A stretch of DNA of 59,176 nt from a virus (lineage: Duplodnaviria > Caudoviricetes): IMG/VR virus record IMGVR_UViG_3300007513_002695, positions 1 to 59,176 of that record; one strand, written 5' to 3'. Numbering within the stretch: the stretch's first letter is position 1; every line of letters begins with the position of its first letter. The position numbers and the translations under genes were made by a program. Shown here piece by piece: positions 1,955 to 51,924 of the stretch. The notes beneath the pieces are model-generated. The model did not search any database. It saw nothing but the letters and a program-made list of their open reading frames with translations, and was not told the origin of the DNA.

Positions 1955-2308
1955 CTAGCCGCTGTTTATTGCATCATACAGTGTCTTAATAATTAAGCCA
2001 ACCATAGACGTAGAAACGACCCACATTAGCTTTTGAAATCCCGACACTTGAGATTTTATTATAGCAAAGTCTTCATTTAAATTTTGAGGATAGTTTGTTT
2101 GAATTTCTTGAAGTCGCTGCTCTAAAAGAGTAATTCTTGTTTCTTGTTTAGCTGTAGCACTTGTTAGAGAGCTCATTGACTTTTCTATCTTTTCAAAACC
2201 TTCCTTTATGATATCAAGCTTTTGTGCAACGCTAGCTGAGGCAATCTTAAGCTCAGTTAAATCATTTGAAAGTTTAGAAATCCACTCTTCAGTCGAACCA
2301 TTTGACAT
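1955..2308 (-). CDS. coiled-coil protein with C-terminal transmembrane helix (XhlA/holin-like architecture)
   Basis: Heptad-rich N-terminus; hydrophobic LMWVVSTSMVGLII near the C-terminus. Confidence 0.55.
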   Translation of the reverse strand: MSNGSTEEWISKLSNDLTELKIASASVAQKLDIIKEGFEKIEKSMSSLTSATAKQETRITLLEQRLQEIQTNYPQNLNEDFAIIKSQVSGFQKLMWVVSTSMVGLIIKTLYDAINSG

Positions 2309-2559
2309 TATTTCACCCTCGCGAACATACCGAATCTATCCTTAACGAGTCGAAAAACGCCGCTTCTTCCGACCCTAGGACTAACTTTAACTTTCATTAA
2401 ATAAGTATTACCAGACTTGATAATCTTCCCGGCGGACTTGATTGCTTTGTTGATCTTTAGCCACAGCAATATTTGAGACATATCCTCATCTGACTGTGTC
2501 AGGATGGTGGCATATTTCCCATTTTCTTTTTTTATTTTTTTTCTACTTTCAAAAATCAC
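2308..2559 (-). CDS. hypothetical protein
   Basis: 83-aa ORF whose stop overlaps the next start. Confidence 0.6.
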   Translation of the reverse strand: MIFESRKKIKKENGKYATILTQSDEDMSQILLWLKINKAIKSAGKIIKSGNTYLMKVKVSPRVGRSGVFRLVKDRFGMFARVK

Positions 2560-2582
2560 AATGCCCTTAGCCTAGTTTTTTA

Positions 2583-2981
2583 TTAAATTACCAAAGGCTT
2601 GCCGTCTAGCGTAAAATCTCGACCGTTTACTGATAGAACTTTTAGAGATACCACACCGGGCAGGGACTTAACTTTTTCTCCGAGAAGTTTAAGGTTTTTT
2701 TCAAGAGAACCTCCGATTGGTAAGAACTTTATATACATGTCAATATAAGATTTACCATGAGCAACTTTGGGTCTCACAACTTTAGATTTTTGTCCAACAA
2801 CAGTTACCCCGTGAAGGGCGCGAATTCTAGTCATTGTGTCAGGCACGTGCGCTTCTTCTTCCATTGCCAGCCTGTATATGGCGTTTAAAACTTCTTTCTC
2901 AAGCCTATACTTGGGATCAGCTTCTATAAGAAGGGAAATAAAGCTTCTCAGGGTGCGTTCAGAAATATGATCAGACATCAT
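2583..2981 (-). CDS. hypothetical protein (N-terminal ISExxLRxxI tag)
   Basis: 132-aa ORF; ATAATTA 5 nt before ATG; begins ISERTLRSFISLLIE. Confidence 0.65.
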   Translation of the reverse strand: MMSDHISERTLRSFISLLIEADPKYRLEKEVLNAIYRLAMEEEAHVPDTMTRIRALHGVTVVGQKSKVVRPKVAHGKSYIDMYIKFLPIGGSLEKNLKLLGEKVKSLPGVVSLKVLSVNGRDFTLDGKPLVI

Positions 2982-8247: not shown

Positions 8248-8518
8248 TAAATCTATCTCTCCTTTCAGCAAGCGATCTTAAGATAAGACCTGTTCCGGTA
8301 ATTTCTTTATAATAATTAATAATATTCTTTTCAAATTTATTTAAATTTTGCTCTTTGGTTTTAGGATCTCTTGTTGAAAAATTCTTTCTTAGCTTGGGCG
8401 GAAGACCTTTCATGACTTCTTTTTTTACTGTAACCCAGTCATCACAGTTGCTAGTATATGTAGAGACAAATCGAACTTCTTCAAAAATTCTTTCTTTATC
8501 TTCTACGCTAATTGTCAC
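8234..8518 (-). CDS. hypothetical protein
   Basis: 94-aa ORF whose start overlaps the stop of the 1427-aa gene. Confidence 0.6.
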   Translation of the reverse strand: MTISVEDKERIFEEVRFVSTYTSNCDDWVTVKKEVMKGLPPKLRKNFSTRDPKTKEQNLNKFEKNIINYYKEITGTGLILRSLAERRDRFNGFE

Positions 8519-11500
8519 TATATTATCTCCCTGATCATTCTTCTTAGCGCTTCAGAGATATTCTCTTCTTCTGACGCCTCCAAAGATTTGACGACCGCCT
8601 TTGGGTCTGGGAAAGAAGATTTCTTAACCATTTTTATAAAATCTTTTCTGTCAGCTTCATTATCCAAATCAATTCCAGAAGTTACCAATTTTTTAAGAGG
8701 ATTCCCAGTTAGCTGGGACCTTATTCCATAATTTCCTCCTCTGAAGTTTCTAAAATAAACGGATCCAAGTGCATCAGGGAAATCAAATATCTTAGTTGAT
8801 CTGTCATTTCCAACGGTTATTTTATAGTCTGGGTGAAGATGAAACAAACCTTTTCCCTTTACTTGAACAAGCCCAGCTTTTTTAAGCATATAGTATTTTC
8901 GAAGAATTTCTGCAGAAACTTTGTAAACTGCTAGAAGGGCACCCTTTATCTCTCTATCTCCGACAGTAATTGGATTATCATTTAGAACAGGTTGAACAAT
9001 GTCCACGTATTCATCTCTAGAAATCTTTCTCAACATGCTCTCTATTTTTGGAGTAGGGCTATTAGCTCGATAGGAATTGATCGCTTTTCTAACTTTTTCA
9101 AGTCTCTTCTTCACCTTCTTTCGAGAGGGATCTGCATTAATTAGATTTGCTATATCTTGATTTTGAGGTTTTGGGTTGGTAGCTAGAAACTCGCCCTTAT
9201 CAAAATCATAGGCAAGTGTAGGCTCACCGGCTTGAGCGTTGGGTAACTTGATCTCAATACCAAGCTTCTCAGGAAGACCCTTTTCGTTGATATCTACCGT
9301 TGGAATATAAATATCAGAGACTGAATTATCTTCTCCGCCGGAAACCGCAGCCCCGGAATCTTCGAGTTGTTTAAGAGAAGCAAGCTCATACTCATACCCA
9401 GCTTTCCGCTGACCACCTGTAACGCCTGCGATTCCAAACAAGATGAGAAGATTTGAATCAACCAAATAATATGCTGTATAAGATCCGCTTGTATTTTTCC
9501 CCTCGAGAGGGGCAAGTTCTCTAACCTGTCCAGCGTGCCCAGGAGAGAGAATATCATAAAGGTTGTTCATCAATAAAGAGAAGTCATGCTTATCTTGTGA
9601 GCCTGACTTTATTCCAAATCTCATTAAACCGAGGGTAGCACTACCCCCAATAGATTTTTCAAAATCTGATCCTAAAAACTCATTAGAAGAAAGTATTTTT
9701 TGAATAACTTTTGTTTTAGCTTTCCAAGTCTTTGCAGAGTTAAACTCGTCTGCTTCAGGCCCAGTCTCCTCCTCCTCCTCCTCTTCAGGAGAGATTAGTG
9801 TATCTTTTCCTATTTCAATATCAACTGAAACATCTTCCTCTTCTTCAAATAGAACAGTCCTTATCATTTTTCTTAAACTGTTTTCTGACACACTCTCTAT
9901 CCTTTTTGATTTAATATACTCCACAGCTTCTTGCGCAGCACTCCTGACTCTCTCTGACTTAGAGCCAAGCCTATTACCAATATAGGTTTCAAATCTATCC
10001 AGAGCCTCTCTGAATTCATCTGCGTTAGATTCTAGCATGTAATCAACAAGTTGATTAAAGGTTCTAACTGTATCCTTTGGAACTGTAATTCCAATCAGCG
10101 GGAGATAATTATCGGGATCAATGATCCTTCCCTCGAGATTCTCTTTACCCCCTATTCTCTCTCTCCAGCCGCCAGGAAAAGCAACCGTGTATTTAATTAC
10201 CTTGTCAGGCGAAGATTCTCTCTCACCTTTTATTTTTGCAAGTAGAGATAGCATCAGCTTATGATACTCTCCTTTTACTTCTCCTTCTCCCCCACCAGAA
10301 AGTTCCCACGCTGTATCTTCAATGCTGCGACTTTTAAATAGATCTACCTGATAATACCTCCCATCAAGATCAATCATGATGGTAGCTGCCTGCCCTCCTG
10401 GTAATTTCATAACCCTTGGGATTCCAGAAACAAGCTCGTCCCTAAGATAAGGTAGACCATTCAATCCGGCAACAAGGGTCGGAAGATCAGGTTCGCTAAC
10501 AACAAGGTCAACATCCCCGATCTCTTTTTTATTTGTTGCAGTGCTTCCGGCAGGTAGATAATCTAGCCCCAAAGGTTGTAAAACATTTCTCTCAACCTCG
10601 CTTGTTATTTTGTCTGCTACCTGTCTCGATATTCTTTCATCTGTAGTTACAGGCGGGCCTGTTGGGCGACCCCTTTCGTCCCTTGGTCGGAAAGCATTTC
10701 CTCCCTCAATAACTAACCTTTCAGATAGTACAGGAAAATATTTATCAATCTTCTCAGCCCTGTTATTATTATGATTAGATCGACTTCTATAGTCTTTAAG
10801 AGACTTTTCAGGATCTAGCTTGTTTCTTTTTGCAAGTCTGCCCATGGCGGGACCACCCATGCTATTGGCAATTCCGTATGCTATGGCGCGCCCCCTGTCA
10901 GTTTGCCAGCGCTTTCCTTTTTCTCCAAACCCTCTAATTTCATCCTCTGCGGGTAGTGCAGTCACATTCAACCAAGCTTTAAGTTGCTTTCCTTGATTTG
11001 CCCGATTGCTGGCAAATCTTTTCATTGACTCTTTCCAGCCAGGAATATTATTATAACAGTGCTTACTCTTGCAATCGATAGACTTTAGCTCGGCTACGGT
11101 CATTCCAGTTTCCCTAACATCATCATCTGTCATTACGTCGTATAATTTAGGCAAGCCATCTGAAGCAAAGTGACCTATTCCGACGGTTCCTCCATCAAGT
11201 GGGAAAACATCATCCCATCTCTTTCCTGATACTAGCGGTGCTTCTCCTCTAATACAATCAGCATCAGGGCACTTTGCAATAACTTTGGCAAGAATCTTCA
11301 ATGCAAGATTTCTATCGAAGCCTGAAACATCTCCGGTAGCTACAACTTCTGGAGAATAGTCGGCATCAGATGAGCTATCAGCCTCTAAGTCAACTGCTTC
11401 ACTTAGGCTTAAAACAGTATGTTGAATTATCTCATTTAGCATCTCTTCAACATCTTCTTCCTGTGGGTCACTTCCCGGAAGAGAAGCCTTTCCGAAACCT

Positions 11501-12801
11501 TCGCGGCCCATGGACTTGCCAAAAAACCCTCTTAGTCTGTTGACAGGAGTAAACAGTCCAGTAAGCTTATATGTCTTGTTGTTGTATGTAAAAACTATCC
11601 CTTCAGTTGCACGCGTAAGTAGATCCTGATTAGATTCCATTCTCGCAAGAGCAACCCGGATGCCTTCGAGTGTCTTCTCGTCAGCAAGAATCTTTCCTTG
11701 ATCAAATGCTGACTGAGCATCTTTTATAAATCCTAGAAGATCTTCATGGTTTCCTGCTGTTAAAGCAAGATCCAGCTTATCAATAATTGTAACCCCGAGC
11801 CTCTGGATAATCTCTTCAAGGGGAATTATTGCTTCTTGCACAATTCTGGCTTTGCTTTTATCTAATGCCCTAAAAGTCTGATACTCTTCGGGAGTTATTT
11901 TCTTTTTTAACTTTAGCGCAATCTTTCCCTTTCCGGTCATAAATCGATCTGCAACGTCTGGAACGAGAGTTTTGGGTATGAAAGAATACTTCTTTTCAAG
12001 AAAGCTCTCAACTCGTGATTTGACATAGTCTCCAACAGTTGCACTCTTTACATCTAGGCCCGCTTCAGAGACAACTCTTTCAAGATCTTTTTCGAGATTT
12101 TCAATCTCTTCATCGTCGATCTCCAGTCCTTTCATTAGCTTTGCAGTTGGAACTTTATCCATAGTAAATGCTTCAGTAGACGCTTTTTTCATCTCTTCTT
12201 CAAATGCTGACAAGGCATCTCTACTGACATCTTCGTCTGTAAGGGGTATGGCTTTGACTGTTCGAAGGGAATCTGTATCATAAAGAATTGTATTGGGATT
12301 CTTAGAGACCATGATCTGCGAAGCTATGACAACCTCCCCATTTCTAAACAATGCATCTTGGTACGGAATAGCTACAGGTTCAAGTGCCTCGTATGCAATG
12401 GCAAATCCATCAGCAATGTTTGATCTGTCACCCACATAAGTAGTCATAATCTCCTCAAGGCTCATCCCGCCGCCCTTGGACTTTGACCTAATTGCTTCAA
12501 GGCGTTTCTCTTTTGCAGACTGACTTTGAAGATCCATTTTCGTAAAAAATCTTAACTGTCCGTCAACAACTGTAAATGCAAGAAATTGCCCATCCATCTT
12601 TTCCTGGACGTTCTCTAGCTTTCCTTCGAGAGCAAGTTTTCCAATTTCTATAATATCTGAAATTGGCATTGAAAGCTCTTCATATAAATTGTAGATATGT
12701 GCCTCTTCTCCCGGAGAAGATGAGGGTGTAGCTTCTTGAGACTCTAGTTTTACCTTATGGTAATATTCTTTAATGACGCTTGGCGGAATAATAATAGCCA
12801 T
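8518..12801 (-). CDS. multidomain polyprotein: KxDG ligase/adenylation-like domain, lysozyme-like domain, Pol-beta-type nucleotidyltransferase, PD-(D/E)XK nuclease-like domain
   Basis: EKMDGQ...TEGIVF..YKLTG; GTVGIGHF; AGST..EIGDVDLVV...QVDLF; GYEYE...SDIYI...GIEIKL; linkers rich in LxE and LRxxIR. Confidence 0.65.
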   Translation of the reverse strand: MAIIIPPSVIKEYYHKVKLESQEATPSSSPGEEAHIYNLYEELSMPISDIIEIGKLALEGKLENVQEKMDGQFLAFTVVDGQLRFFTKMDLQSQSAKEKRLEAIRSKSKGGGMSLEEIMTTYVGDRSNIADGFAIAYEALEPVAIPYQDALFRNGEVVIASQIMVSKNPNTILYDTDSLRTVKAIPLTDEDVSRDALSAFEEEMKKASTEAFTMDKVPTAKLMKGLEIDDEEIENLEKDLERVVSEAGLDVKSATVGDYVKSRVESFLEKKYSFIPKTLVPDVADRFMTGKGKIALKLKKKITPEEYQTFRALDKSKARIVQEAIIPLEEIIQRLGVTIIDKLDLALTAGNHEDLLGFIKDAQSAFDQGKILADEKTLEGIRVALARMESNQDLLTRATEGIVFTYNNKTYKLTGLFTPVNRLRGFFGKSMGREGFGKASLPGSDPQEEDVEEMLNEIIQHTVLSLSEAVDLEADSSSDADYSPEVVATGDVSGFDRNLALKILAKVIAKCPDADCIRGEAPLVSGKRWDDVFPLDGGTVGIGHFASDGLPKLYDVMTDDDVRETGMTVAELKSIDCKSKHCYNNIPGWKESMKRFASNRANQGKQLKAWLNVTALPAEDEIRGFGEKGKRWQTDRGRAIAYGIANSMGGPAMGRLAKRNKLDPEKSLKDYRSRSNHNNNRAEKIDKYFPVLSERLVIEGGNAFRPRDERGRPTGPPVTTDERISRQVADKITSEVERNVLQPLGLDYLPAGSTATNKKEIGDVDLVVSEPDLPTLVAGLNGLPYLRDELVSGIPRVMKLPGGQAATIMIDLDGRYYQVDLFKSRSIEDTAWELSGGGEGEVKGEYHKLMLSLLAKIKGERESSPDKVIKYTVAFPGGWRERIGGKENLEGRIIDPDNYLPLIGITVPKDTVRTFNQLVDYMLESNADEFREALDRFETYIGNRLGSKSERVRSAAQEAVEYIKSKRIESVSENSLRKMIRTVLFEEEEDVSVDIEIGKDTLISPEEEEEEETGPEADEFNSAKTWKAKTKVIQKILSSNEFLGSDFEKSIGGSATLGLMRFGIKSGSQDKHDFSLLMNNLYDILSPGHAGQVRELAPLEGKNTSGSYTAYYLVDSNLLILFGIAGVTGGQRKAGYEYELASLKQLEDSGAAVSGGEDNSVSDIYIPTVDINEKGLPEKLGIEIKLPNAQAGEPTLAYDFDKGEFLATNPKPQNQDIANLINADPSRKKVKKRLEKVRKAINSYRANSPTPKIESMLRKISRDEYVDIVQPVLNDNPITVGDREIKGALLAVYKVSAEILRKYYMLKKAGLVQVKGKGLFHLHPDYKITVGNDRSTKIFDFPDALGSVYFRNFRGGNYGIRSQLTGNPLKKLVTSGIDLDNEADRKDFIKMVKKSSFPDPKAVVKSLEASEEENISEALRRMIREII

Positions 12802-12802
12802 T

Positions 12803-13648
12803 TTATCCTCTTATAATCCCTCTAATGTAGGCTCTAAGATAAACTTCGTCTTGTCTAGAAGGCTGTGTGTCATCTTTAAACCCCAAGAGTATTTGAACAA
12901 TTTGATCTTTTTCATCGCTATTGAGAAACGGCGGGAGGTATCTCTTAGCTTCTTCGGCTGTCTCAATAGAAGATGCTAGATCTCTAACACGAGTACCTCT
13001 AATTGTCTGCCTTGAGACAACCTCGTCGTCCTCAAGATCCTCACCTTTACTAGCATAAAAATCTTTTAGTGCCTCTTGAGCCTCCACCTCGCCTTGCGCC
13101 ATTAGCTGATCAAGCTTCTCAGTGTAGTCATCGGGACTAGTCGGAACAGCACCCCCAAATTGAATTTTACCTATCTGAACATGATCTTTGAACTTTGGGC
13201 TTCTCATGTATGGGCGCATCGAGTTGGCGTCTCCGTAGATTGTTACCTTTTCTATCTCACCGGGATCAGAAACAAAGTCCTCTAGTGTCTTGAAGATCGC
13301 TGTAACGGGTGCACGAATCGATACCAGATTCCCCTGCTCATCTTTTGCCTGACTTTGAATGAGAAATACCTCAACCTCCGGGATTCTCTCTAGAGCAGTT
13401 TTATATATGTTAAAAATACTTTGAGCAACCTGCTCATCATATGTTCGCCCTGAATCGCCGATTCCTCTAAACTTTTGTCCCGACTTTAAGGGCTGGCCCT
13501 TCTTTCCATACCGAGTCGGTTCGAGCTGCTGCATACCATAAAACAGGTACACCTTGTCGTTATCTCTGATAGCATCTGCTAATTTTGCAAAGTGACCTGT
13601 CGTAAAGGGTTTAAACCCGCCACCGTATAGTCCTAGTTTTGTACCCAC
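12803..13648 (-). CDS. HxGH-family (cytidylyltransferase-like) nucleotidyltransferase
   Basis: LYGGGFKPFTTGH and C-terminal TIRGTRVR (ISxTxxR-like); ends EVYLRAYIRGII. Confidence 0.75.
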   Translation of the reverse strand: MGTKLGLYGGGFKPFTTGHFAKLADAIRDNDKVYLFYGMQQLEPTRYGKKGQPLKSGQKFRGIGDSGRTYDEQVAQSIFNIYKTALERIPEVEVFLIQSQAKDEQGNLVSIRAPVTAIFKTLEDFVSDPGEIEKVTIYGDANSMRPYMRSPKFKDHVQIGKIQFGGAVPTSPDDYTEKLDQLMAQGEVEAQEALKDFYASKGEDLEDDEVVSRQTIRGTRVRDLASSIETAEEAKRYLPPFLNSDEKDQIVQILLGFKDDTQPSRQDEVYLRAYIRGIIRG

Positions 13649-13667
13649 AGAAACGGCCTCCTATATC

Positions 13668-13674
13668 TAATTAT
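13668..13674 (-). promoter_or_regulatory. putative late promoter ATAATTA
   Basis: ATAnTTA upstream of SD AGGAGG and the GTG start of 12803..13648. Confidence 0.5.
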
Positions 13675-13701
13675 TCACAAAAAATGCAGGTTTACAGGAA
13701 T

Positions 13702-14003: not shown

Positions 14004-14222
14004 CTAAAACTCTGTGGGCATGGGTTCATCGACGTACACAGCATCTTCTGTGTTATCAAGTGAAGATCTAAAGCTTTTAAAAACAAATTCTTTAATATCA
14101 TCATCTGTTACCGTTTTATCCTCAGGGATCTTTAGTTGCTCTCTAACTACTTTTAAAAAATCTGACTTATATTCTATCTCTAGAAAATTATCATTAGCAA
14201 TTTGTATTTTTTTCTTTTCCAT
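14004..14222 (-). CDS. hypothetical protein
   Basis: 72-aa ORF with TAATG stop/start overlap. Confidence 0.65.
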   Translation of the reverse strand: MEKKKIQIANDNFLEIEYKSDFLKVVREQLKIPEDKTVTDDDIKEFVFKSFRSSLDNTEDAVYVDEPMPTEF

Positions 14223-14932
14223 TACGCTCTCATAAGATCTAGGACTTTTTGTCTTAATGCTTCTTTCATCTGAGATCCAACCTGAATAGGGGGTCTTGTG
14301 TCTTCTTCACCGGGGGATCTTGACGAAGCCGGAGATTGTCGATCTGAGTTTTGACTAGAAGCCTTCTGGCTTGAAGAATCATCCGGAGACGATTTTTTAG
14401 AATCTCTAGAAACACTAATAGAGGTCGGAGGATCACTCGGATCCTGGGGTGCCTGACCCGTCTTATTCATAATATTTGCTACTGATAAAAAGAATGTATA
14501 CATAAGCTCTCGCTCCTCATCGCTAAGATCACTCATGATATACTGCTCCAAAGGCTCAGCAACCTCACTATCTCGGGTAGAATCTCCGGCTCGAATCTGA
14601 TTAATTATATTTCTAATTGAATAATAGTTAATTTCCTCTTTGCTGCTTTCCGACTCTTCAGGCTCAGCTTGTGGCTGTGGATCGTCCTGGTCGGTTTCAC
14701 CCTGATCAGATCCAGCAGAAGGAGTCGGCTCATCCTCGAACTCATCATCTTCCTCTGCTTCATCAAACCTGCCTTTATCACTTTTAATCTTAGCAGTAAT
14801 CTTTTTCTGATATGCGCTGTCTCCCGAATCACTCTCAAGAAGATGGCGCCTTGAGCTAGCAACACTTTCTTCGGCAAGTATTTTTAAAAACGACTCAAGA
14901 CCCGATGCTGTATCTATTTTAATATCAGTCAC
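14222..14932 (-). CDS. acidic hypothetical protein (C-terminal MKEALRQKV tag)
   Basis: Start placed at GTG 14932, overlapping the TGA of the upstream small ORF; D/E/S-rich. Confidence 0.65.
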   Translation of the reverse strand: MTDIKIDTASGLESFLKILAEESVASSRRHLLESDSGDSAYQKKITAKIKSDKGRFDEAEEDDEFEDEPTPSAGSDQGETDQDDPQPQAEPEESESSKEEINYYSIRNIINQIRAGDSTRDSEVAEPLEQYIMSDLSDEERELMYTFFLSVANIMNKTGQAPQDPSDPPTSISVSRDSKKSSPDDSSSQKASSQNSDRQSPASSRSPGEEDTRPPIQVGSQMKEALRQKVLDLMRA

Positions 14933-15102
14933 TTTTTTCTCCAATCAAATCTTACAGAGTTTTGCCATTTTTCTCTATATCGCTTATTATAAACTCTCTG
15001 TGGAAGCTCTTCTTTTTCATGAACTTTTTCTCTATTTGATTTTTCATTCATTACTTCTCTCTTGACAATATCTTTTACAAATTTATCAAACTTAAATTTC
15101 AT
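14929..15102 (-). CDS. small hypothetical protein (57 aa, not in the ORF track)
   Basis: MKFKFDKFVKDIVKREVMNEK...KWQNSVRFDWRKK*; SD AGAGGG and ATATTTA (15122..15128) upstream; GTGA overlap with next gene. Confidence 0.6.
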   Translation of the reverse strand: MKFKFDKFVKDIVKREVMNEKSNREKVHEKEELPQRVYNKRYREKWQNSVRFDWRKK

Positions 15103-15912: not shown

Positions 15913-17817
15913 TTACTTTCCTTTCTGATTTTCGGATTTTAACTTGGCAATATATCTATCTCTTCTCTTTGGAGCCTTGCTCAGAGCCCTTCCGATCACA
16001 TCAAATATCCTCTTTTGAGACCGGGGTGTGTCTTTCTTAAAGGAGTCATACATTCTAACCTGACCTTTTATAAATTCATCGAAATCTTCTCGGGCATCGA
16101 GCGTTCCAAATACATCGTGATTATCTTCAAAATCTTTTATAATCATCTTCAATCCACCCTTCGCCTTGACATCTTCAGGTACAATGTGATCTTTTGCCAT
16201 AATATCAATAAACTCTTGAATAGCTTCATAGGCAGATCTTGTATCTCTAAATGTGGTGCTATCTACGTCAGTATCTTCAGAAGGAAGACCCACGACAGAT
16301 TGTAATCTCTGATAGCCTTCGAGTCCTGGCTGATATAGTCCAGACGGTCCCAGTAGTTTATCTTCAAGGTCAGATGCTATGGGATCTTCTGCATCAATCC
16401 TGTCTTTTAAAAATATACCTAGATTGTGCATAAAGACGTCGTAGAGCTTTGTTACAACCTCTTCTTCAGCTCTGACTTTTAATGGATCATAAATTAATGG
16501 AATATTTTTCCTTCCCCTCGGCATTCTTCGGAGACCAAAGATCTTTCTTAAAACCTCATTATCCATTCCGCTGGCTTTCAAATCTTCATAGAAGATATTT
16601 CTAACATCACCTACTGACTGACCTGTCTCTTCAGATATTTTTTCTATAAAGGCGCGAATTGCCTCTTGGCTAAAGTTGAGCTTACCCGGCTCATATTCTG
16701 AAGCAAGGGTTTCCTCGCGGATCATTTTTCTTATAGCTTCAACCTCAGCTTTTGACAACCCTTCTTCATCAGACTCAGATTCAACATCTTCTTCAGAAGT
16801 TGATTGAGTCTCTATCTCTTTGATTGCATCTTGCTTAGCATCTTCAATAAACTCAAGCATTTTTTCTACTGTGACGCTATAGGTTCCTAGCTCAGCTATC
16901 TTAAATGTGAATTCATCCTCAGGACTCTTGCCTGAAAGCTGTTTGGAATCTTTGGTTATGTAGACATTAATTCGGTTTTTGAATTTTTCAATATCACCCT
17001 CAGCGGCTTTCATTTCTGTGTCAATCAATATGTTAGAAAACATCTCAGCTGCAAGATCATCGTCAACCTTTTCCTCTTTTCCTAGATAGCCGAGGAGATC
17101 TTCCCTGACCATAGTTATAAAAATTGACTCATTGATATTAAGCTCTGATATTGCCGCTTCAATCGCCCTGGCTATGTCCTCTCTTTCAAATGCCCTGTTC
17201 AAAACATACATAACAGCGGCCTGACTAGCCACAACCTTCATCGGTCGCTTGTCACCGGTTTTAAAATCAAGAACATCTGCCCCGGGTAACTCAACGAGAT
17301 GAAGCTTAGACTTAATTATCATGTCAACTATGTCATCAACTTTTCTTGAAATGTGATATTCCCTGCCTTTCTCATCTGGTAAATCTTCATCAGAAAGATC
17401 TACATCTTCCTCAGAATCAACTTCTTCGGTCCCGTCAGAGCTCTCAGCTAAAGCTTTTAAAAATCCAAGCAGTGCTGATTCAGAAATTCTATTTTTACTA
17501 TCTTGCTTATCAAGAGACATGTCTAGAAGCTTGTGAAGACCTTGATAAAAATATTGAACCTGATCATTGGGAACTTCATCGATAATAGCCCTTGCTGCTG
17601 TGGCAAGACTTGGCTTAGAAGTCGGAGAGTAATCAGGATCTTCAACCGGAGGTTTTTCTGAAGCGAGCTGTGTAGCCATCTCAGGTGTTGGATCTATTGG
17701 AAATTCATCATCCTTCGCAGGAATCTCCGCCATATCACCGGAATGATATGTTCTATTTTCTGATGTTAGCTTTTCTATTAAACCTATCAAAGCTGATTTT
17801 TTGACAACTACGCTCAT
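15913..17817 (-). CDS. large acidic hypothetical protein, probably virion-associated
   Basis: Start moved to ATG 17817 (SD TGGAGG); ATATTTA at 17834..17840; tags KKSALIGLIE, ISESALLGFL, IRKMIREE. Confidence 0.65.
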   Translation of the reverse strand: MSVVVKKSALIGLIEKLTSENRTYHSGDMAEIPAKDDEFPIDPTPEMATQLASEKPPVEDPDYSPTSKPSLATAARAIIDEVPNDQVQYFYQGLHKLLDMSLDKQDSKNRISESALLGFLKALAESSDGTEEVDSEEDVDLSDEDLPDEKGREYHISRKVDDIVDMIIKSKLHLVELPGADVLDFKTGDKRPMKVVASQAAVMYVLNRAFEREDIARAIEAAISELNINESIFITMVREDLLGYLGKEEKVDDDLAAEMFSNILIDTEMKAAEGDIEKFKNRINVYITKDSKQLSGKSPEDEFTFKIAELGTYSVTVEKMLEFIEDAKQDAIKEIETQSTSEEDVESESDEEGLSKAEVEAIRKMIREETLASEYEPGKLNFSQEAIRAFIEKISEETGQSVGDVRNIFYEDLKASGMDNEVLRKIFGLRRMPRGRKNIPLIYDPLKVRAEEEVVTKLYDVFMHNLGIFLKDRIDAEDPIASDLEDKLLGPSGLYQPGLEGYQRLQSVVGLPSEDTDVDSTTFRDTRSAYEAIQEFIDIMAKDHIVPEDVKAKGGLKMIIKDFEDNHDVFGTLDAREDFDEFIKGQVRMYDSFKKDTPRSQKRIFDVIGRALSKAPKRRDRYIAKLKSENQKGK

Positions 17818-17855
17818 CAAGCCCTCCAATCAATAAATATGGTGCTTAGGACAAA

Positions 17856-18353
17856 TTAATTATTTGCTATCTGACCATATGACCATGCTGCACCCATTCC
17901 CAACAAGAGTCCCGAAGCAATCCCGATGACTAACCATAGTTCATTGTTAGGGTTGGCGGATCTTTGAAGCTGTTGATCCAAAAAATCTATGTGATTATCT
18001 TTTAAAGAAGTAACTTGATCATATCTCAAATTCGAAGCATCGAGAGATGAATTGAGATTATCAATATCAAGCTGAAACCTTGCAGATGAAATTTCTAGCT
18101 CCCTGTCTATTCTAACCTGACACGATTCATTTGAAAGTTGAATTTCAGCGAGAAGCTTTGCTGCAGCTTCTGTACTAAAAAGAGTCCCGTCAAAGGGTGC
18201 CGCTTCCCCTTCCAAAATGGAGGTTACAACTTCATTTTCTACAGTATCAGCATGAGCAACGGGAAAAAAGATAAGCGTAAAGCTTATCATAAAAGACATA
18301 GAATAATTTAAAATTTTACTTAACATGAACTTCAAACCCGAGCTCTTTCGCAA
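17856..18353 (-). CDS. exported coiled-coil protein with C-terminal TM (possible spanin-like component)
   Basis: Signal peptide ending AHA, coiled coil, C-terminal LWLVIGIASGLLLGMGAAW. Confidence 0.5.
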   Translation of the reverse strand: MRKSSGLKFMLSKILNYSMSFMISFTLIFFPVAHADTVENEVVTSILEGEAAPFDGTLFSTEAAAKLLAEIQLSNESCQVRIDRELEISSARFQLDIDNLNSSLDASNLRYDQVTSLKDNHIDFLDQQLQRSANPNNELWLVIGIASGLLLGMGAAWSYGQIANN

Positions 18354-18741
18354 GCTCTCTTGTTATTGCATCAGGATCCTCAGAGTTAGAGTCTATAATC
18401 TCCCTAACTCTCTCTCTTTTTCTCTCATCGAGAATCTCTTCCTTCTCTGCATATTTTTCTTCAGCCAGCCTAATAGCTTCATGATATCTCGTGATAGCTT
18501 TGTCTCTCTTTTCTATTTCTTCTGTATGAGACTGTTCTATGGCTTCTATTTGGGATTTATAATTCTCCTTTTTTTCTGATATAACTTTAGAAAGATCTGT
18601 TCGTTTTCTCGTTAAGAGAAAGACAACAGCACTAATGGAAACTACTAGAACTATGTGTCCATTAACTTTTACCCAGGCCCAGAACTTTTTTAAATAAGTG
18701 GGTACCTTTTTCATGAATTCAGAAAGAGCCAGGGTCCACAT
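18316..18741 (-). CDS. N-terminal TM plus coiled-coil protein (i-spanin/Rz-like)
   Basis: IVLVVSISAVVFLL followed by a charged coiled coil; overlaps the next gene; follows a holin-like gene. Confidence 0.5.
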   Translation of the reverse strand: MWTLALSEFMKKVPTYLKKFWAWVKVNGHIVLVVSISAVVFLLTRKRTDLSKVISEKKENYKSQIEAIEQSHTEEIEKRDKAITRYHEAIRLAEEKYAEKEEILDERKRERVREIIDSNSEDPDAITRELAKELGFEVHVK

Positions 18742-18743
18742 TT

Positions 18744-18959
18744 TTATGACCCGTGTCTAAATATTTTCATAGCATCAACAGCAGCCTGAGATCCGATATA
18801 TACTATTGCTATCATCCCCCAGGTCTCAGAATCTAAAAGAGAGTTAGACATAAGGCCTGTGGCAGTCAAAAAAACAAGAAGCTTTCTAGAAATAAGCTTT
18901 TCCATAATCGTATCCAATCTTGAATTTTTTGACTGGATTGCTTTCGGGTGTTCGGACAT
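18744..18959 (-). CDS. putative holin
   Basis: 71 aa, KLISRKLL followed by two hydrophobic segments, YIGSQAAVD; SD AGGAGG. Confidence 0.6.
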   Translation of the reverse strand: MSEHPKAIQSKNSRLDTIMEKLISRKLLVFLTATGLMSNSLLDSETWGMIAIVYIGSQAAVDAMKIFRHGS

Positions 18960-20181: not shown

Positions 20182-20895
20182 TTATCCTCTCATTGCTCCG
20201 TGTATTTTTTCTGCTCGAGAAAACCTGCTGCCAATTACATTCCAATTTAGCTCTTTCATCATAGCATACACATAAGTCTTTCTATCATTTAAATAATCTC
20301 TATAGTAAGAGTGCTCCCATGCATCCATAACAATTACAGGAAAAATTCCAATCATGTGGTTTAAGCTATGCAAGTCAACAACAGTGTTTACATATCTTTG
20401 AAGATACATGTGATATCCTGTTACAACCCAGCCGTTCCGTGCAGAAAGAGAGCATGCTATAAAATCTTTTTGCCAAGCGTCAAAAGATCCAAAGTCTCTT
20501 TCAAGTCGCATGTATGGAATAGAGTCCATTGCTATTTCGCTTCTAAGATCACTAATATTTGCAAAATAAAGCTCATGAAGCCAAAGCGCATTAAGATTAT
20601 AAGACTCATCTATTTTAAGAGATCTAAATGCTGAGTGATTTAAATTTGCCTCTTCTCTGTTGGCGGTATCAAGCTCAGCGCTTACTCTATTAAAAGCATT
20701 AACATAGCTGTCGTAAAGCTCTTTATGAGAAACCTTGTTTTTCTGACTAAGAAACTCTGTCTTTAGATCAAACGGTTTTGTCTGAGCAACATAGTTCTCT
20801 TTTAGAACTTTAGAGTCAGAGTGCCCAGGGTTGCTATCAATCCCCAGAGACTCTCTTATAATGTTTGCTACTTCTAAATTTTTTATATCTGACAT
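20182..20895 (-). CDS. sod: Fe/Mn superoxide dismutase family protein with N-terminal extension
   Basis: SHKELY..YV, LHELYF, FGSFDAWQKDF, GWVV, MDAWEHSYY.DY; four metal ligands present. Confidence 0.88.
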   Translation of the reverse strand: MSDIKNLEVANIIRESLGIDSNPGHSDSKVLKENYVAQTKPFDLKTEFLSQKNKVSHKELYDSYVNAFNRVSAELDTANREEANLNHSAFRSLKIDESYNLNALWLHELYFANISDLRSEIAMDSIPYMRLERDFGSFDAWQKDFIACSLSARNGWVVTGYHMYLQRYVNTVVDLHSLNHMIGIFPVIVMDAWEHSYYRDYLNDRKTYVYAMMKELNWNVIGSRFSRAEKIHGAMRG

Positions 20896-21178: not shown

Positions 21179-21243
21179 TCTGTCTCCAAGAATAAGGGCA
21201 TAATACTAATTATTTAAATAAATTTAATTTACAGATAAAGAAA

Positions 21244-30174: not shown

Positions 30175-30193
30175 ATCTTTATCCTCTATGAGA

Positions 30194-30221
30194 ATTATAC
30201 TATATAAAATTCACGTTTACA
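30194..30221 (-). promoter_or_regulatory. promoter TGTAAA-N16-TATAAT for dnaE
   Basis: Perfect -10 with recurring -35 variant; SD AGAGGA follows. Confidence 0.65.
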
Positions 30222-30227
30222 CGAAGA

Positions 30228-30938
30228 TTATATCGTAATATCAGAAGAAGAATGACAATCTTTCTCAGGTACTGGGTCTCCATTTACGACATCAAACGTA
30301 TTGACGGAAAGACCTGGATATTCTTCTGAACAAAGCGTAAGAATTGCCCCTAAGTTTCTCTTAGAGTCATCATAGAAAAATATCTCTCGAGGGGAGTGAT
30401 CCTCAACATATTTTCTTACAATATTGAGCTTATCTTCGGGTTTACCCCCACTATCACCAACCGTGTGAACAGGTATATTTTTTAACCCTTTGCTCTCTAA
30501 AAAGTCAGATATATCTTTTCTATTTTGTTCTCCTGCCCTGGCAGTGACAATTGCAACTACACTAGACTCCGCTTCGCTTGCTTTCCTAATAAGATCAATT
30601 AAAGATTTTATTTCAACTGGATTAAGGACAGATTCAAAATTATCATAGTTAACAACGTCTTTTTCTCTTTGAGGAAAGGGCTTCTGTCTATAAATTTCAA
30701 AAGATTCTGAATCCATTGACTCAGTCTCCCCGACCTCTCCTGTGTCAGGATCGACGAATGTAACCTTCACTACATTATCTGTGTGGGCAAGTGTATCATC
30801 AAAATCAAAAAAATGAAGAGTAATATCGCCAGGGCGATATAAGCCTTCTTCTGAAAAAGGTGACTCAGAAACTAGTCTTATTAGTTCCTCTCTAATAATT
30901 TTCTCAATCAAGCTTCGGGATATTTTTGTTGATGCCAT
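30228..30938 (-). CDS. HAD-superfamily phosphatase with N-terminal tag
   Basis: FFDFDDTL, IVTAR, K, FYDDS..NL; begins KISRSLIEKIIREELIRLVSE. Confidence 0.8.
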   Translation of the reverse strand: MASTKISRSLIEKIIREELIRLVSESPFSEEGLYRPGDITLHFFDFDDTLAHTDNVVKVTFVDPDTGEVGETESMDSESFEIYRQKPFPQREKDVVNYDNFESVLNPVEIKSLIDLIRKASEAESSVVAIVTARAGEQNRKDISDFLESKGLKNIPVHTVGDSGGKPEDKLNIVRKYVEDHSPREIFFYDDSKRNLGAILTLCSEEYPGLSVNTFDVVNGDPVPEKDCHSSSDITI

Positions 30939-37342: not shown

Positions 37343-38143
37343 TTAAAGTTCTTCTCTAATAATCTGGATAAGTCGGGACTCTTTAATTGACATTGACGCG
37401 TCATAGGCATCATTCTTTATGTTTGAAAGTTTTTCAAGACTTCCGTTTCTTCTAAGAACCTTGAAGGCGATATTTCCCGTTGAGTACTGACCCTTTCTAG
37501 TTCTCAACCCTGACTTTCTCATTCTTCTTATCTTTTCCTTCACCTTTTCTGCTAGCTCAATAGTCTCTTCAGGACTAGATTCTAGCTTCTCAAGCTCAGC
37601 AATTTGTCTCATAATCCCAGCTGCTTTCTTCTTGACAGAATCGAAGCTAATCTTTTCACCCTGCTCATCCGGAGGAACTCTAATCCACTCTCCGTTTAAA
37701 ACTGAATATAATCCTGTGGACATATGCTCTTCACCCATGTTCTCAACGTATATCTCAACATCATATCCTTTGGCCTTGATATCGTGTCTAAGATTCCAAA
37801 GTGCAGCAGCAGAGTTAAAGTATCCCTCTACAAGGTCCTGGTCTTCGTCTACTTCTGAAAAATTAACTACGACATGCAGGTCAACATCAGAATATTTTGA
37901 CCAGTTATAGTTTGCCAGTGAGCCGGTTAGTCGTATATCTTCTGGCCGGACATCTATCGAGAGCCCTTCAGCAAAGTCGTCAGCTACAGCCAGAAGAGCT
38001 TCTCGAACGTCAGGTCGCATGGTATTATCAGAATCCCACACTCTTTTTTCCAGCGTGTCATTAAATGAAAATCCATCGACGCTAACATCTTGTGCTGCTA
38101 TTTCTCTTACGAGTTTCCGCAAGAGTCTCTTGGTGCCAGACAT
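37343..38143 (-). CDS. Pol-beta-superfamily nucleotidyltransferase with terminal tags
   Basis: LTGSLANYNWSKYSDVDLHVV, YDVEIY; N-terminal RLLRKLVREI and C-terminal IKESRLIQIIREEL. Confidence 0.82.
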   Translation of the reverse strand: MSGTKRLLRKLVREIAAQDVSVDGFSFNDTLEKRVWDSDNTMRPDVREALLAVADDFAEGLSIDVRPEDIRLTGSLANYNWSKYSDVDLHVVVNFSEVDEDQDLVEGYFNSAAALWNLRHDIKAKGYDVEIYVENMGEEHMSTGLYSVLNGEWIRVPPDEQGEKISFDSVKKKAAGIMRQIAELEKLESSPEETIELAEKVKEKIRRMRKSGLRTRKGQYSTGNIAFKVLRRNGSLEKLSNIKNDAYDASMSIKESRLIQIIREEL

Positions 38144-38598: not shown

Positions 38599-38604
38599 GA
38601 AAAT

Positions 38605-38632
38605 ATTATAATATCAAATCAAAAGGTTTACA
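38605..38632 (-). promoter_or_regulatory. promoter TGTAAA-N16-TATAAT, leaderless (6 nt to ATG)
   Basis: Directly upstream of the MBD4-like gene; no SD. Confidence 0.6.
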
Positions 38633-49194: not shown

Positions 49195-50115
49195 TCAACT
49201 TTTTGATCTTTTAACATCTTCTAGAAGAGAAATAAGATCTAAGCCAGCACAATCTATTTTGTTTTTTGTGTAATTATAATGATTTACAAAACCAGAAAAC
49301 TTTCCACTCACAACATCTCCAACAACGCCTGTATCAAGCGATCCATTGGATCGAGTCGGACACACTAGTGGGATTCCCGTTCCAGTGTGAATAGCCTTCC
49401 AAAGGGCCTTAAGTGCTTCAATTTGAACTGAATAAAAATCTAAAAACGGAGACAGTTTTCTACCATGAACCCATCCCGCTTCCTGGATAGGTCTTTCACC
49501 AAATCCGTTTTTTACATACCAGTCTTGATACTTTGTATAGTATGCATTGCTTATTTCGACCCCAATTCCCTTTTTATTTCCAGACACGTTTCCGGCATGC
49601 CAGGCACCGTGCTGCGTATCTAAAAGCTGGTAAATTGTTCCGTCGTTGTCAATACAAAAGTGAACTGAGACTTTTCTCCTGTTTAAAACTTTTGCGCATG
49701 ATTCAGAGCTTAGACAGACATCCCAGTGATTGACGAAAACATTTGGCTTTCGATCTGGTTTTCCAGAATAGTCATAATAAGTTCCGGGTTTCATCTTTAG
49801 TCCCCCGTTCTCATTCCACAAAACTACCCTGGGCCACTCTATCTCTACAAGCTTTGAATTACAAACTATAAAACTATGATCCTTTTCCTTGGGACAAAAA
49901 TTTCTATAAGTCCCGATATCAGACTCCCTCTCTGTCCAGATTCTACGATAAGTAGTGGGGCCACAAAGACCATCAGCTACAAGCCCTCTTTTCTTTTGCC
50001 ACTTTCTAATTTCACCTACAAGATCTTCATCATGATATACTGCACCAAACCAGTCCGGCTCCCAGCCGAGAGAATCTGATGAACTTTTATTGTAGAATAC
50101 TTTATCAACAGTCAT
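49195..50115 (-). CDS. N-acetylmuramoyl-L-alanine amidase (endolysin) with peptidoglycan-binding domain
   Basis: WQKKRGLVADGLCGPTT (PG-binding_1); VNHWD, SVHFCID.DGTIYQ, AWHAG..N...IGVE, H......KIDC (Amidase_2). Confidence 0.88.
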   Translation of the reverse strand: MTVDKVFYNKSSSDSLGWEPDWFGAVYHDEDLVGEIRKWQKKRGLVADGLCGPTTYRRIWTERESDIGTYRNFCPKEKDHSFIVCNSKLVEIEWPRVVLWNENGGLKMKPGTYYDYSGKPDRKPNVFVNHWDVCLSSESCAKVLNRRKVSVHFCIDNDGTIYQLLDTQHGAWHAGNVSGNKKGIGVEISNAYYTKYQDWYVKNGFGERPIQEAGWVHGRKLSPFLDFYSVQIEALKALWKAIHTGTGIPLVCPTRSNGSLDTGVVGDVVSGKFSGFVNHYNYTKNKIDCAGLDLISLLEDVKRSKS

Positions 50116-51321: not shown

Positions 51322-51924
51322 TCACTCTAGTTCAATATCAACAGATATATCTACATGAATTGATGGGACCCTAAGATGATTCGACAGGCCGTGTCTTTTT
51401 GCTTCATTTGCATTTAAAAACCAGTCAGCGTGTTTCTTTTTATCAACTATCTTTAAAAAGTAGTCGTCTTTCTTTCCGCAGTTTTGAGCCATCATCTTAT
51501 AAACAATAGAATTAAGACGATCAGCTTCAGCTGCTCCAGCTTTAAGCTCTTCGACTTTTCCCATATCCATAGAGCTTACATCATGAATCATCAGGGTCGC
51601 ATCGGGATCCATAAATCTGCGCCCCTGCTCTCCAAAAGAAAATAGAATCGCACCGCATGACATAGCTTTACCTTCCACGATCGTTGCAACCGGAAGCTCT
51701 GCATGTTTTATAGCACTGATCATAGCCATCAGACTATAGACTTGACCACCGTACGAATCAATGACTACTGGGATAACTTTCTGCCCTGTGTTGTGTGCAA
51801 GTGCCATTTGCTCAGAAAACTTCTTTGCAGCTTCTTCATCAAATTTATTTACTCTAATTATAACCGGACTCTTTCTTAGCTCATACTCTTTTAAAAGAGG
51901 CGATACATTAATTTTCCACTTCAT
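51322..51924 (-). CDS. clpP: ClpP-like serine protease
   Basis: IDSYGGQV, GKAMSCGA (Ser), LMIHD (His), DWFL.ANEA...GL. Confidence 0.85.
   Translation of the reverse strand: MKWKINVSPLLKEYELRKSPVIIRVNKFDEEAAKKFSEQMALAHNTGQKVIPVVIDSYGGQVYSLMAMISAIKHAELPVATIVEGKAMSCGAILFSFGEQGRRFMDPDATLMIHDVSSMDMGKVEELKAGAAEADRLNSIVYKMMAQNCGKKDDYFLKIVDKKKHADWFLNANEAKRHGLSNHLRVPSIHVDISVDIELE

Follow-up and report, generated by a model that had tools for sequence, protein, structure and literature searches.

We analyzed a 59,176-nucleotide stretch of viral DNA, here denoted the window (IMG/VR virus record IMGVR_UViG_3300007513_002695, positions 1 to 59,176; Duplodnaviria, Caudoviricetes), and found that two adjacent genes in it likely encode a modular nucleic-acid end-repair set of the trim-fill-seal kind, as judged from folds and invariant residues (Table 1). 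The first gene encodes a nucleotidyltransferase (NTase; here denoted N). The second encodes a protein of 1427 amino acids with four domains, denoted A to D: a ligase-type adenylyltransferase, a lysozyme-like insert, a polymerase X-like NTase and a candidate nuclease. Short helical segments, denoted tags, lie at the domain joints and at the C-terminal ends of both proteins. Our tentative explanation, which falls a little short of probable, is that the chain is taken into the capsid as cargo and divided there into individual enzymes for trimming, filling and sealing, together with a module directed at the wall. The source is a large phage, uncultured and T4-related, of which the window represents a fragment of 59 kb (completeness estimated by CheckV at 20%).

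A preliminary description of the window had reported the two open reading frames (ORFs), 1 nt apart; both stand as described and all the motifs quoted for them are present. The 1427-amino acid protein has nothing significant in Pfam or PHROGs. A search of 5.8 billion proteins gave 67 homologues, and domain boundaries were set by BLASTP of the query against them. Domain A is present in all 67, C in about 50 and D in about 30, with other sequence in the place of D elsewhere. The catalytic motifs are unchanged across 35-40 aligned homologues. For A, C and D we used the folds in a model of homologue P0003, a protein of 1200 amino acids that corresponds to the query without B (72-73% identical; mean predicted local distance difference test score, pLDDT, 77.9), and domain B was modeled alone (pLDDT 84).

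Domain A is, by its modeled fold, an RNA-ligase-type enzyme of the ATP-dependent RNA ligase / covalent nucleotidyltransferase superfamily, which narrows down the ligase/capping-type adenylation domain first reported there. In motif I, K68 is the predicted AMP-accepting lysine. Also invariant or nearly so are F152 and G155-E (in NGEVV, with NGE at 154-156), N170, I172 and Y174. We take the corresponding segments of the domain to be ligase motifs III, IIIa, IV and V, and the ligase motifs stand in the expected order, with a helical insert of about 200 amino acids between motifs IIIa and IV. In a wide fold search with the P0003 model, all the ligase matches to residues 29-455 among the 50 rows listed were RNA ligases. 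They include NgrRnl (5cot, Z 7.5, 181 residues aligned), T4 Rnl2 (1s68, Z 7.4, 177 aligned), 2hvq (Z 7.3), Trl1-LIG (Z 6.9, 197 aligned), REL1 (Z 6.9), MthRnl (Z 6.6) and T4 Rnl1 (Z 6.5), values that are moderate. The Pfam family RNA_ligase (PF09414) has no match in the window protein at E <=1 and matches 5 of 35 homologues below the cut-off (best E 3e-4); profiles A1 and A2 gave no match for domains A and D. In the proposed set, A would seal ends, on DNA or RNA.

The Pol-beta NTase of the preliminary description is likewise confirmed and can be named more closely: domain C is, on the modeled fold, a minimal family-X polymerase and not merely a generic Pol-beta NTase. In the wide fold search ten family-X chains scored Z 8.9-11.0, as against <=7.6 for other NTase families; among them are Tth PolX (Z 11.0), Pol beta (Z 10.8) and African swine fever virus (ASFV) Pol X (Z 9.3, 161/176 residues aligned). 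Foldseek matched domain C to Pol lambda (E 1.1e-5, 212 columns, 20% identity), and the family profile matched Pol lambda chains with E 5e-4; a search of PDB sequences with the single protein returned only ASFV Pol X (E 0.13). The domain opens with VIE/GGNAF at amino acids 697-704 (here and below, a slash follows each hydrophobic-x-Glu). The GS (752-753), DVD (763-765) and QVDLF (818-822) motifs contain the residues G752, D763, D765, Q818 and D820, invariant in 35 sequences, and the GS/DxD/D segment aligns with that of ASFV Pol X. The structural alignments begin at about residue 97-150 of Pol beta; to our knowledge, ASFV Pol X lacks the 8-kDa and helix-hairpin-helix domains. At the level of Pfam, DNA_pol_B_palm matches 3 of the 35 homologues, the window protein not among them, below the gathering score (best E 0.01), and RlaP (PF10127) matches none of the 35 at E <=0.1 nor the window protein. 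Domain C would add or fill nucleotides.

Domain D had been described as PD-(D/E)XK-like. The motif holds in every D-bearing homologue aligned, with GYEYE at 1135-1139, SDIYI at 1162-1166 and IEIKL at 1182-1186 of the window protein, and in the P0003 model it is borne by a helix (905-916) and two strands (931-939 and 945-951). The fold was not matched: no structure and no nuclease was found for D among the 50 rows listed, which is not evidence for a new fold, because A and C filled the wide list and family-X polymerases filled the Foldseek list. The call of a PD-(D/E)XK nuclease in D therefore rests on the motif; an Atlas entry that points to R.HinP1I (at 0.85) counts as no more than a lead. 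Besides its place in the chain, D is found as a stand-alone protein. In P0033-P0052 it is swapped for other C-terminal modules, several of which share a terminal GLLxVRVxxxIEP motif; Pfam matches below the cut-off in these replacing modules are Pkinase in P0050 and an ADP-ribosyltransferase (ART) family in P0040. As a nuclease, D would trim ends.

The upstream gene product is, by its sequence motifs, a HIGH-superfamily, NMNAT-like NTase. The class and the C-terminal tag of the 'HxGH' nucleotidyltransferase named in the preliminary description stand; the motif itself does not, and reads TTGH (amino acids 16-19). The family profile matches the NMN adenylyltransferase NadM (2qjt, E 1.1e-5), the second signature, RGTRVR, is presumably an ISxTxxR-type motif, and the closest named Atlas clusters are viral PF01467 (cytidylyltransferase-like). 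This Pfam family (CTP_transf_like) is above the cut-off in 6 of 18 relatives scanned and in 3 more in a second scan. The window NTase itself matches phrog_3462 only (E 0.0019), and tblastn against the phage collection gave no match. The protein terminates in YLRAYIRGIIRG, and its C-terminal tag helix is the N-to-A joint in fused relatives (in P0042, at position 260). The role of the NTase may be the activation of a phosphate or the provision of a dinucleotide cofactor; its coupling, as a HIGH nucleotidyltransferase, to a ligase is conserved.

Domain B is, according to its model, of the lysozyme-superfamily fold, closest to the GH46 chitosanases and to the Vibrio cholerae wall hydrolase VgrG3, in agreement with the lysozyme-like segment noted earlier (GTVGIGHF at amino acids 538-545, ANSMG at 645-649). 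The model matched GH46 chitosanases with Z 13.1 (7c6d_A, 178 aligned), 12.4 and 12.4, a GH80 chitosanase with 9.5 and VgrG3 (4noo_C) with 9.3 (163 aligned); P22 and T4 lysozymes span 6.5-7.5, with P22 lysozyme at 7.5. Mostly helical models can reach such Z values through arrangement alone. Most of the rows listed for B are chitosanases, lysozymes (including T4 lysozyme fusion constructs) or lytic transglycosylases; in Foldseek the top match reaches E 0.057 with probability 0.99, and BFVD gave weak rows (best E 0.079) that include phage endolysin, chitosanase, pesticin and VgrG-like entries. A profile of B found nothing among PDB sequences, and there is no Pfam sequence match either.

B is inserted exactly between the tag LNE/IIQHTVLSLSE/ that ends A and the joint LSE/RLVIE/GGNAF, and is absent from all 25 related loci that we compared (see below). 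When 1.84 billion representatives were searched in full with HMMER, domain B turned up in 58 other proteins. Among the 48 members of this family that were scanned, 5 carry M23, M15 or phage-lysozyme domains above the Pfam cut-off (M23 in three, one of them also with M15_3; M15_4/VanY in one; Phage_lysozyme in one), and further partners are Hydrolase_2 (one, below the cut-off) and DUF2272 (two). In lysozyme-type enzymes the catalytic Glu follows the first helix. B has the same overall fold as GH46 chitosanases, VgrG3 and GH24 lysozymes, but differs from them in having no conserved Glu after the first helix and in being inserted in a multi-enzyme chain. The conserved polar residues of B are D531, D536, H544, Q606, N646, S647 and R681; its conserved acidic positions, in 41 sequences, are D531 (acidic in 34), D536 (Asp in 36) and E665 (acidic in 30).

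LRxxIR tags accompanied by LNE, LSE, VIE or VSE had been noticed at the domain joints, and their presence there is far above that in shuffled sequences. Each module begins or ends with a tag, a predicted amphipathic helix some 14 residues long that has hydrophobic-x-Glu on either side. In the 1427-amino acid protein LRKMIR begins at residue 976 and LRRMIRE at residue 1419, the latter 2-3 residues short of the C-terminus. The simple pattern L[RK]xx[IVLM]R occurs 5 times in 148 ORFs, and 3 of the occurrences are in the two operon genes. A looser tag pattern gave 19 matches in 75 window ORFs, versus 4.6 in shuffles; 8 matches lie within 25 amino acids of a terminus, versus 1.3 expected, and none of 300 shuffles reached 8. 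The terminal excess was also seen in four related loci. Of 52 homologues, 39 have a double-flanked tag, in every case at a domain joint, versus a shuffle mean of 0.69 and a maximum of 3 (200 shuffles); part of this count is inheritance, because the homologues are kin, and the linkers around the tags vary freely. A logo of the junction between C and the downstream module, built from 32 distinct tags, has E at -3 in 25, R at +1 in 30, I at +4 in 30, R/K at +5 in 28, and both L/I/F at +8 and E at +10 in all 32, followed by an acidic run. Immediately before GGNAF, hydrophobic-x-Glu is present in 39 of 39 homologues examined.

Tag-like segments are also found in other proteins of the window, all encoded on the minus strand. 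A 5'-3' exonuclease (55832..56779) has MRTLIRE 19 residues from its C-terminus. A HAD-type phosphatase (30228..30938; DxDxT motif FDFDDTL, PHROG 'polynucleotide kinase' family) has the N-terminal tag SLIE/KIIREELIRLVSE/ and could be the end-healing partner of the ligase. A second Pol-beta-type NTase (37343..38143; Pfam NTP_transf_2, E 2e-4) begins with the tag LLRKLVREI and then DVSVD, a string that also follows tag 2 of the 1427-amino acid protein; compared with domain D, this ORF has only the tag and DVSVD in common (E 0.24). The superoxide dismutase (SOD)-like protein (Pfam Sod_Fe_C; 20182..20895) starts with the tag-like NIIRESLG, which reads NLRDNIRESL in relatives (L003 172..867 and L004 203..898). 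Orthologues of this protein, of ORFs 19569, 14222, 13702 and 7354 and of other neighbors retain tag-like N- or C-terminal helices. A 638-amino acid protein with a GapR-like DNA-binding domain (15913..17829; Pfam E 3.7e-5) has an internal AIRKMIRE and is conserved in all four related loci. In a very acidic 240-amino acid protein (14222..14944) with many Ser and Pro residues, the N-terminal FLKILAEESV is conserved and the C-terminus is tag-like; the composition is like that of a scaffold or internal head protein.

The preliminary description had also raised the occurrence of the domains as stand-alone or shuffled genes in related phages, and such arrangements were found. In 10 of the 67 homologues the upstream NTase is fused to A, as an extra N-terminal stretch of about 270 amino acids that aligns with it. 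Fifteen distant homologues stop exactly at the end of A, and most of those scanned have an N-terminal CTP_transf_like domain above the cut-off. Searching the phage collection with the 1427-amino acid protein gave one record, Microcystis phage Mel-JY01, which encodes a 639-amino acid NTase-A fusion. Stand-alone D proteins (P0130, P0132 and P0134) start with tags, and the A-C-only protein P0135 ends with one. For P0128, scans of viral contigs gave fused relatives only, and a metagenome scan gave its contig.

We then compared 25 loci, of which some are the same contig from two collections and six are truncated at the end of a contig. All keep the order N, A, C, D, with gaps of 1-2 nt. The operon is found as one gene (N-A-C-D; L003/L011, L004/L010, L013, L016, L027 and L028), as two genes with a separate N (N, A-C-D; L002, L005/L012, L014, L017, L018, L024-L026 and L029) or as three genes (N, A-C, D; L015), and the splits are always at tags. 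In L015 the NTase ends with LRAFIKATIRG, the A-C protein ends with SETLREFIQAVIIG, and the D protein starts with MMQSLLLETFIKELLENLE and ends with SEALALLIREYCHDLK. Since the modules are separate gene products in relatives, they work without covalent linkage. We also considered the tags as mere flexible linkers. This role is ruled out, because each free polypeptide retains its own tag at its free end. In L015 an extra gene of 297 amino acids (2081..2974), of no assigned family, lies immediately upstream of the NTase gene.

Nearly all genes of the window are on the minus strand. In addition to those above they encode a Pol III alpha, a DnaB-type helicase, RecA/UvsX, a gp32-like single-stranded DNA-binding protein, ribonucleotide reductase (RNR), ThyX, GroEL, a sigma-70 factor, a ClpP-like protease and an amidase. 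A two-box promoter-like pattern, TGTAAA(C/T), about 16-18 nt and a TATAAT-like box, lies 34-55 nt upstream of four start codons, one of them that of the NTase gene. As the element recurs before the Pol III alpha gene, the operon looks co-regulated with replication genes, a suggestion made from a putative, pattern-matched promoter. Late expression, as claimed in the preliminary description, is not indicated, because the promoter-like element is shared with the Pol III alpha gene and the neighboring genes are not recognizable as structural. A sigma-70-type factor is encoded by the phage itself (690..1424).

Capsid loading followed by cutting at the tags is the best-supported explanation of this organization, ranked ahead of a cytoplasmic docking role for the tags. 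In phage T4, according to excerpts of two papers, ten-residue N-terminal capsid-targeting sequences bring unrelated proteins into the prohead core, the protease gp21 cuts after L/I-x-E, and peptides are removed at both termini of the enzyme Alt (PMC9026906, PMC3012670). By analogy, the tag helices would act like the capsid-targeting sequences and direct the chain to the core of the prohead, and there a head protease of the T4 gp21 type would cut after the tag Glu residues and release the enzymes. The freed enzymes would enter the host with the phage DNA and mend broken phage DNA or host-cut RNA before phage gene expression; B, in this lineage only, would be a wall-directed lysozyme-fold module that acts on the cell wall. 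Three observations lend real but indirect support to a polyprotein that would be cut at the tags and packaged: the genes of relatives split exactly at tags, a conserved hydrophobic-x-Glu flanks each tag, and a T4 gp21-type protease is present in relatives. The tag-flanking hydrophobic-x-Glu agrees with the specificity of gp21. On the L004 contig a Peptidase_S77 (gp21-type) gene (E 1.3e-26) lies between portal-like and capsid-like genes, and small proteins beside it have tag-like termini. Mel-JY01, the one relative that is an isolate, has a protease that is 55% identical as well as a T4-like capsid gene, and its NTase-A gene is 2.6 kb upstream of the terminase gene on the same strand.

Several observations weigh against this explanation. 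Only 1 of 6 related viral records, all 16-38% complete, yielded a gp21-type protease, and none was found in the 20%-complete window. The operon and the Pol III alpha gene are preceded by promoter-like elements of one class, and the operon's neighbors are the SOD-like protein, GroEL, the sigma factor and unknown proteins, with no recognizable head or structural genes. Tag-like helices occur on the 5'-3' exonuclease and the HAD phosphatase, which are more usually cytoplasmic replication and repair proteins. The combination of Glu at -3 and Arg at +1 also fits an ordinary salt bridge within a helix, and in the P0003 model the tag after C extends a long confident helix, a poor protease substrate unless unfolded. 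The folds of A, C and D are those of P0003 and not of the window's own chain. B occurs in only 2 of the 67 homologues (the window's own entry and P0002, 77% identical), and no acidic residue is conserved at the usual place of the catalytic Glu in 41 sequences of B, so that B may bind the wall without hydrolyzing it.

A broader form of the capsid-loading explanation, which we regard as more doubtful than the explanation itself, is that in marine T4-related phages one portable label, composed of hydrophobic-x-Glu, an Arg-rich amphipathic helix and L-x-Glu, loads into the capsid an enzyme kit of ligase, polymerase X, nuclease, adenylyltransferase and, in the lineage of the window, a non-canonical lysozyme-fold module, and that the head protease cuts this kit. 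Such a label may sit at the N-terminus, at the C-terminus or between domains, and it may also load the phosphatase, the SOD-like protein and others. The genome would then arrive with its own repair crew, which would mend sunlight or nuclease damage before any phage gene is read.

A rather unlikely but serious competitor holds that the same enzymes stay in the cytoplasm, neither packaged nor cut, and that the tags are docking peptides that bind a common hub or each other, as PIP boxes bind PCNA. The tags on the 5'-3' exonuclease, the HAD phosphatase and the second Pol-beta NTase are consistent with docking, as are the promoter class in common with the DNA polymerase gene and the non-structural neighbors. 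Free-standing modules each keep their own tag, as a docking peptide would need, and the hydrophobic spacing of the tag suits a coiled-coil-like contact. However, Glu at +10 after L/I/F at +8 in 32 of 32 tags, then an acidic run, with a second hydrophobic-x-Glu upstream, is a better fit to a gp21 site. Moreover, tag-like helices also occur on the SOD-like and small acidic proteins, a wall-directed lysozyme-fold module would be useless in a cytoplasmic repair complex, and no hub protein was identified.

An improbable alternative is a chain that enters the capsid and then the host in one piece, as a polyvalent protein as defined by Iyer et al. (2017), with the tags serving as loading signals or flexible joints only. 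Excerpts of the polyvalent-protein paper describe proteins with combinations of lysozyme, Pol-beta NTase, kinase and ART domains, for which entry together with the DNA is predicted, and some that are packaged unprocessed, such as the N4 virion RNA polymerase (PMC5512222). The C-terminal modules of our homologues also vary, with the Pkinase (P0050) and ART (P0040) matches below the cut-off given above. Against this, covalent linkage is unneeded, since relatives make the modules as separate gene products; a protease-type motif is kept on both flanks of each tag; and the protein and 35 homologues have no MuF, portal or zincin peptidase match in Pfam.

Least likely by far is that the NTases make or destroy small nucleotides (nicotinamide adenine dinucleotide, NAD+, or cyclic or linear oligonucleotide signals) to blunt host defense and do not act on nucleic-acid ends: the best solved relatives of the upstream enzyme are NMN adenylyltransferases, the weaker structural matches of domain C include CD-NTases (Z ~6-6.5), and phage NAD+ salvage is known, according to an excerpt (PMC9503650), but domain C fits polymerase X clearly better than CD-NTases, no NadV-type partner is present among the 34 window ORFs scanned, the invariant-lysine ligase-type domain and the PD-(D/E)XK nuclease both suggest polynucleotide substrates, and for the second-messenger interference proposed in the preliminary description we found no specific support.

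The capsid-loading explanation can be compared with several known systems. Like the operon proteins, T4 IPI-III and Alt, as excerpted, have terminal amphipathic peptides that end in L/I-x-E on unrelated proteins, with Alt trimmed at both ends (PMC9026906, PMC3012670). Here, in contrast, the tags are also internal, at every domain joint and double-flanked, and the cargo would be nucleic-acid enzymes. The tag itself (hydrophobic-R-x-x-I-R...L-x-E) presumably differs from the T4 capsid-targeting sequence. The nearest published concept is that of the polyvalent proteins, which, in the excerpted text, likewise combine many unrelated catalytic domains (lysozyme and Pol-beta NTase among them) with variable terminal modules and a predicted co-delivery with DNA (PMC5512222). 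The window protein, unlike them, has no MuF, portal or zincin peptidase anchors, and its proposed processing is by a head protease at linear motifs. In the same excerpts, an association of RNA ligases with the 2H phosphoesterase domains of polyvalent proteins is said never to have been observed, and a core of ligase, polymerase X and nuclease is not described (PMC5512222).

For the enzymes themselves, pairs of an RNA ligase and RlaP (PF10127) are similar in that a ligase is coupled to a Pol-beta-superfamily NTase which, according to excerpts of two reports, restores 3'-end nucleotides before sealing (PMC7824862, PMC12776372). Domain C, however, is not PF10127 and is structurally nearest to DNA polymerase X, and it is fused to the ligase and joined by a nuclease and a HIGH NTase. 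Comparable systems are ASFV Pol X, a minimal polymerase X that acts alongside a ligase in base-excision-type repair, and the bacterial LigD. They share with the operon a small palm-plus-thumb polymerase X combined with a sealing enzyme and an end-processing nuclease as a trim, fill and seal set, whereas the ligase here is RNA-ligase-type and has no OB domain, the modules are ordered and fused differently, and the context is a phage with tags. A literature search gave no publication on the N-A-C-D family among the matches listed. The new elements of this analysis are the split form of the NTase, domain B as an insert and the family to which it belongs, the arrangement in three genes, the logo of the tag, and the promoter-like pattern.

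If capsid loading and cutting hold true, the T4 scheme of capsid targeting and gp21 cleavage, known for a few small internal proteins and Alt, would extend to internal double-flanked joints that turn one long chain into a set of separate enzymes, and the tag would be a compact cargo-loading signal. Abundant uncultured ocean phages may then hold a nucleic-acid repair kit in the virion, which would bear on phage survival in the face of DNA damage outside the host and of host nucleases during entry. Packaging aside, fold and invariant residues together define three uncharacterized families: an RNA-ligase-type enzyme that has a large insert of helices, a minimal polymerase X of phages, and a GH46-like wall-associated domain without the usual catalytic Glu.

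Table 1. Coordinates of the two operon genes, their domains, motifs and tags, and the promoter-like elements (window positions; aa, amino acids; folds as modeled, functions as predicted)
Feature	Position	Strand	Description
NTase gene (HIGH-superfamily, NMNAT-like)	12803..13648	-	GTG start, 281 aa; ends 1 nt upstream of the 1427-aa ORF
(T/H)xGH motif GGFKPFTTGH, aa 10-19 of NTase	13592..13621	-	G10, G11, F12, K13, P14, F15, G18 and H19 invariant in 13 sequences
Second NTase signature RGTRVR, aa 217-222	12983..13000	-	G218 and R222 invariant; T219 at least 90% conserved
NTase C-terminal tag VYLRAYIRGIIRG	12806..12844	-	Orthologues in L002 and L005 have the same ending
Multi-enzyme ORF, domains A-B-C-D	8518..12801	-	ATG start, 1427 aa
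Domain A, aa 1-445	11467..12801	-	RNA-ligase-type adenylyltransferase; all-helical ~200-aa insert; no OB domain
Ligase motif I EKMDGQ, aa 67-72	12586..12603	-	E67, K68, D70, G71 and Q72 invariant in 40 sequences
Ligase motifs IV and V, EGIVF...KTYKLTG, aa 400-415	11557..11604	-	E400, G401, V403, K412, L413, T414 and G415 invariant
Tag 1, LNE/IIQHTVLSLSE/, aa 455-468, end of A	11398..11439	-	In P0003 the tag leads straight into GGNAF
Domain B, aa 469-691 (folded core ~497-691)	10729..11397	-	Lysozyme-superfamily, GH46/VgrG3-like insert
Short joint LSE/RLVIE/, aa 692-699, directly before GGNAF	10705..10728	-	E699 invariant
Domain C, aa 700-970	9892..10704	-	Minimal family-X polymerase-like nucleotidyltransferase
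GS...DxD catalytic segment, G752 to D765	10507..10548	-	Invariant residues; aligns with ASFV Pol X; third carboxylate D820 at 10342..10344
Tag 2, VSE/NSLRKMIRTVLFE/, then acidic run, aa 971-986	9844..9891	-	From junction-tag comparison
Domain D, aa ~1020-1410	8572..9744	-	Three sub-domains, the middle one PD-(D/E)XK-like
PD-(D/E)XK motif E1139 ... D1163 ... E1183-x-K1185	9244..9399	-	GYxYE..SD..GIE[IV]K in 18/18 D-bearing homologues
C-terminal tag, ISE/ALRRMIRE/II, aa 1415-1427	8521..8559	-	Also in P0002, P0003, P0004, P0026 and P0039
Promoter-like element	13655..13696	-	TGTAAAC, ~17 nt, then AATAAT; begins 48 nt upstream of the NTase start codon
Putative copies of the two-box element	13655..13696, 21190..21233, 30180..30221, 38600..38632	all -	Pattern match; copy at 30221 precedes the Pol III alpha gene

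Elsewhere on the minus strand, a ClpP-type protease (51322..51924; Pfam E 3.7e-27), assigned by PHROG to 'head maturation protease', is encoded next to the RNR gene, on whose other side follows a 398-amino acid gene of no assigned family (50112..51308), whose product has IRLLIREII at residue 61. A role of this protease as the processing enzyme was considered and set aside. Three small adjacent ORFs with hydrophobic, membrane-like stretches (17856..18959) lie on the same strand amid the cluster of tagged proteins and are conserved in related loci.

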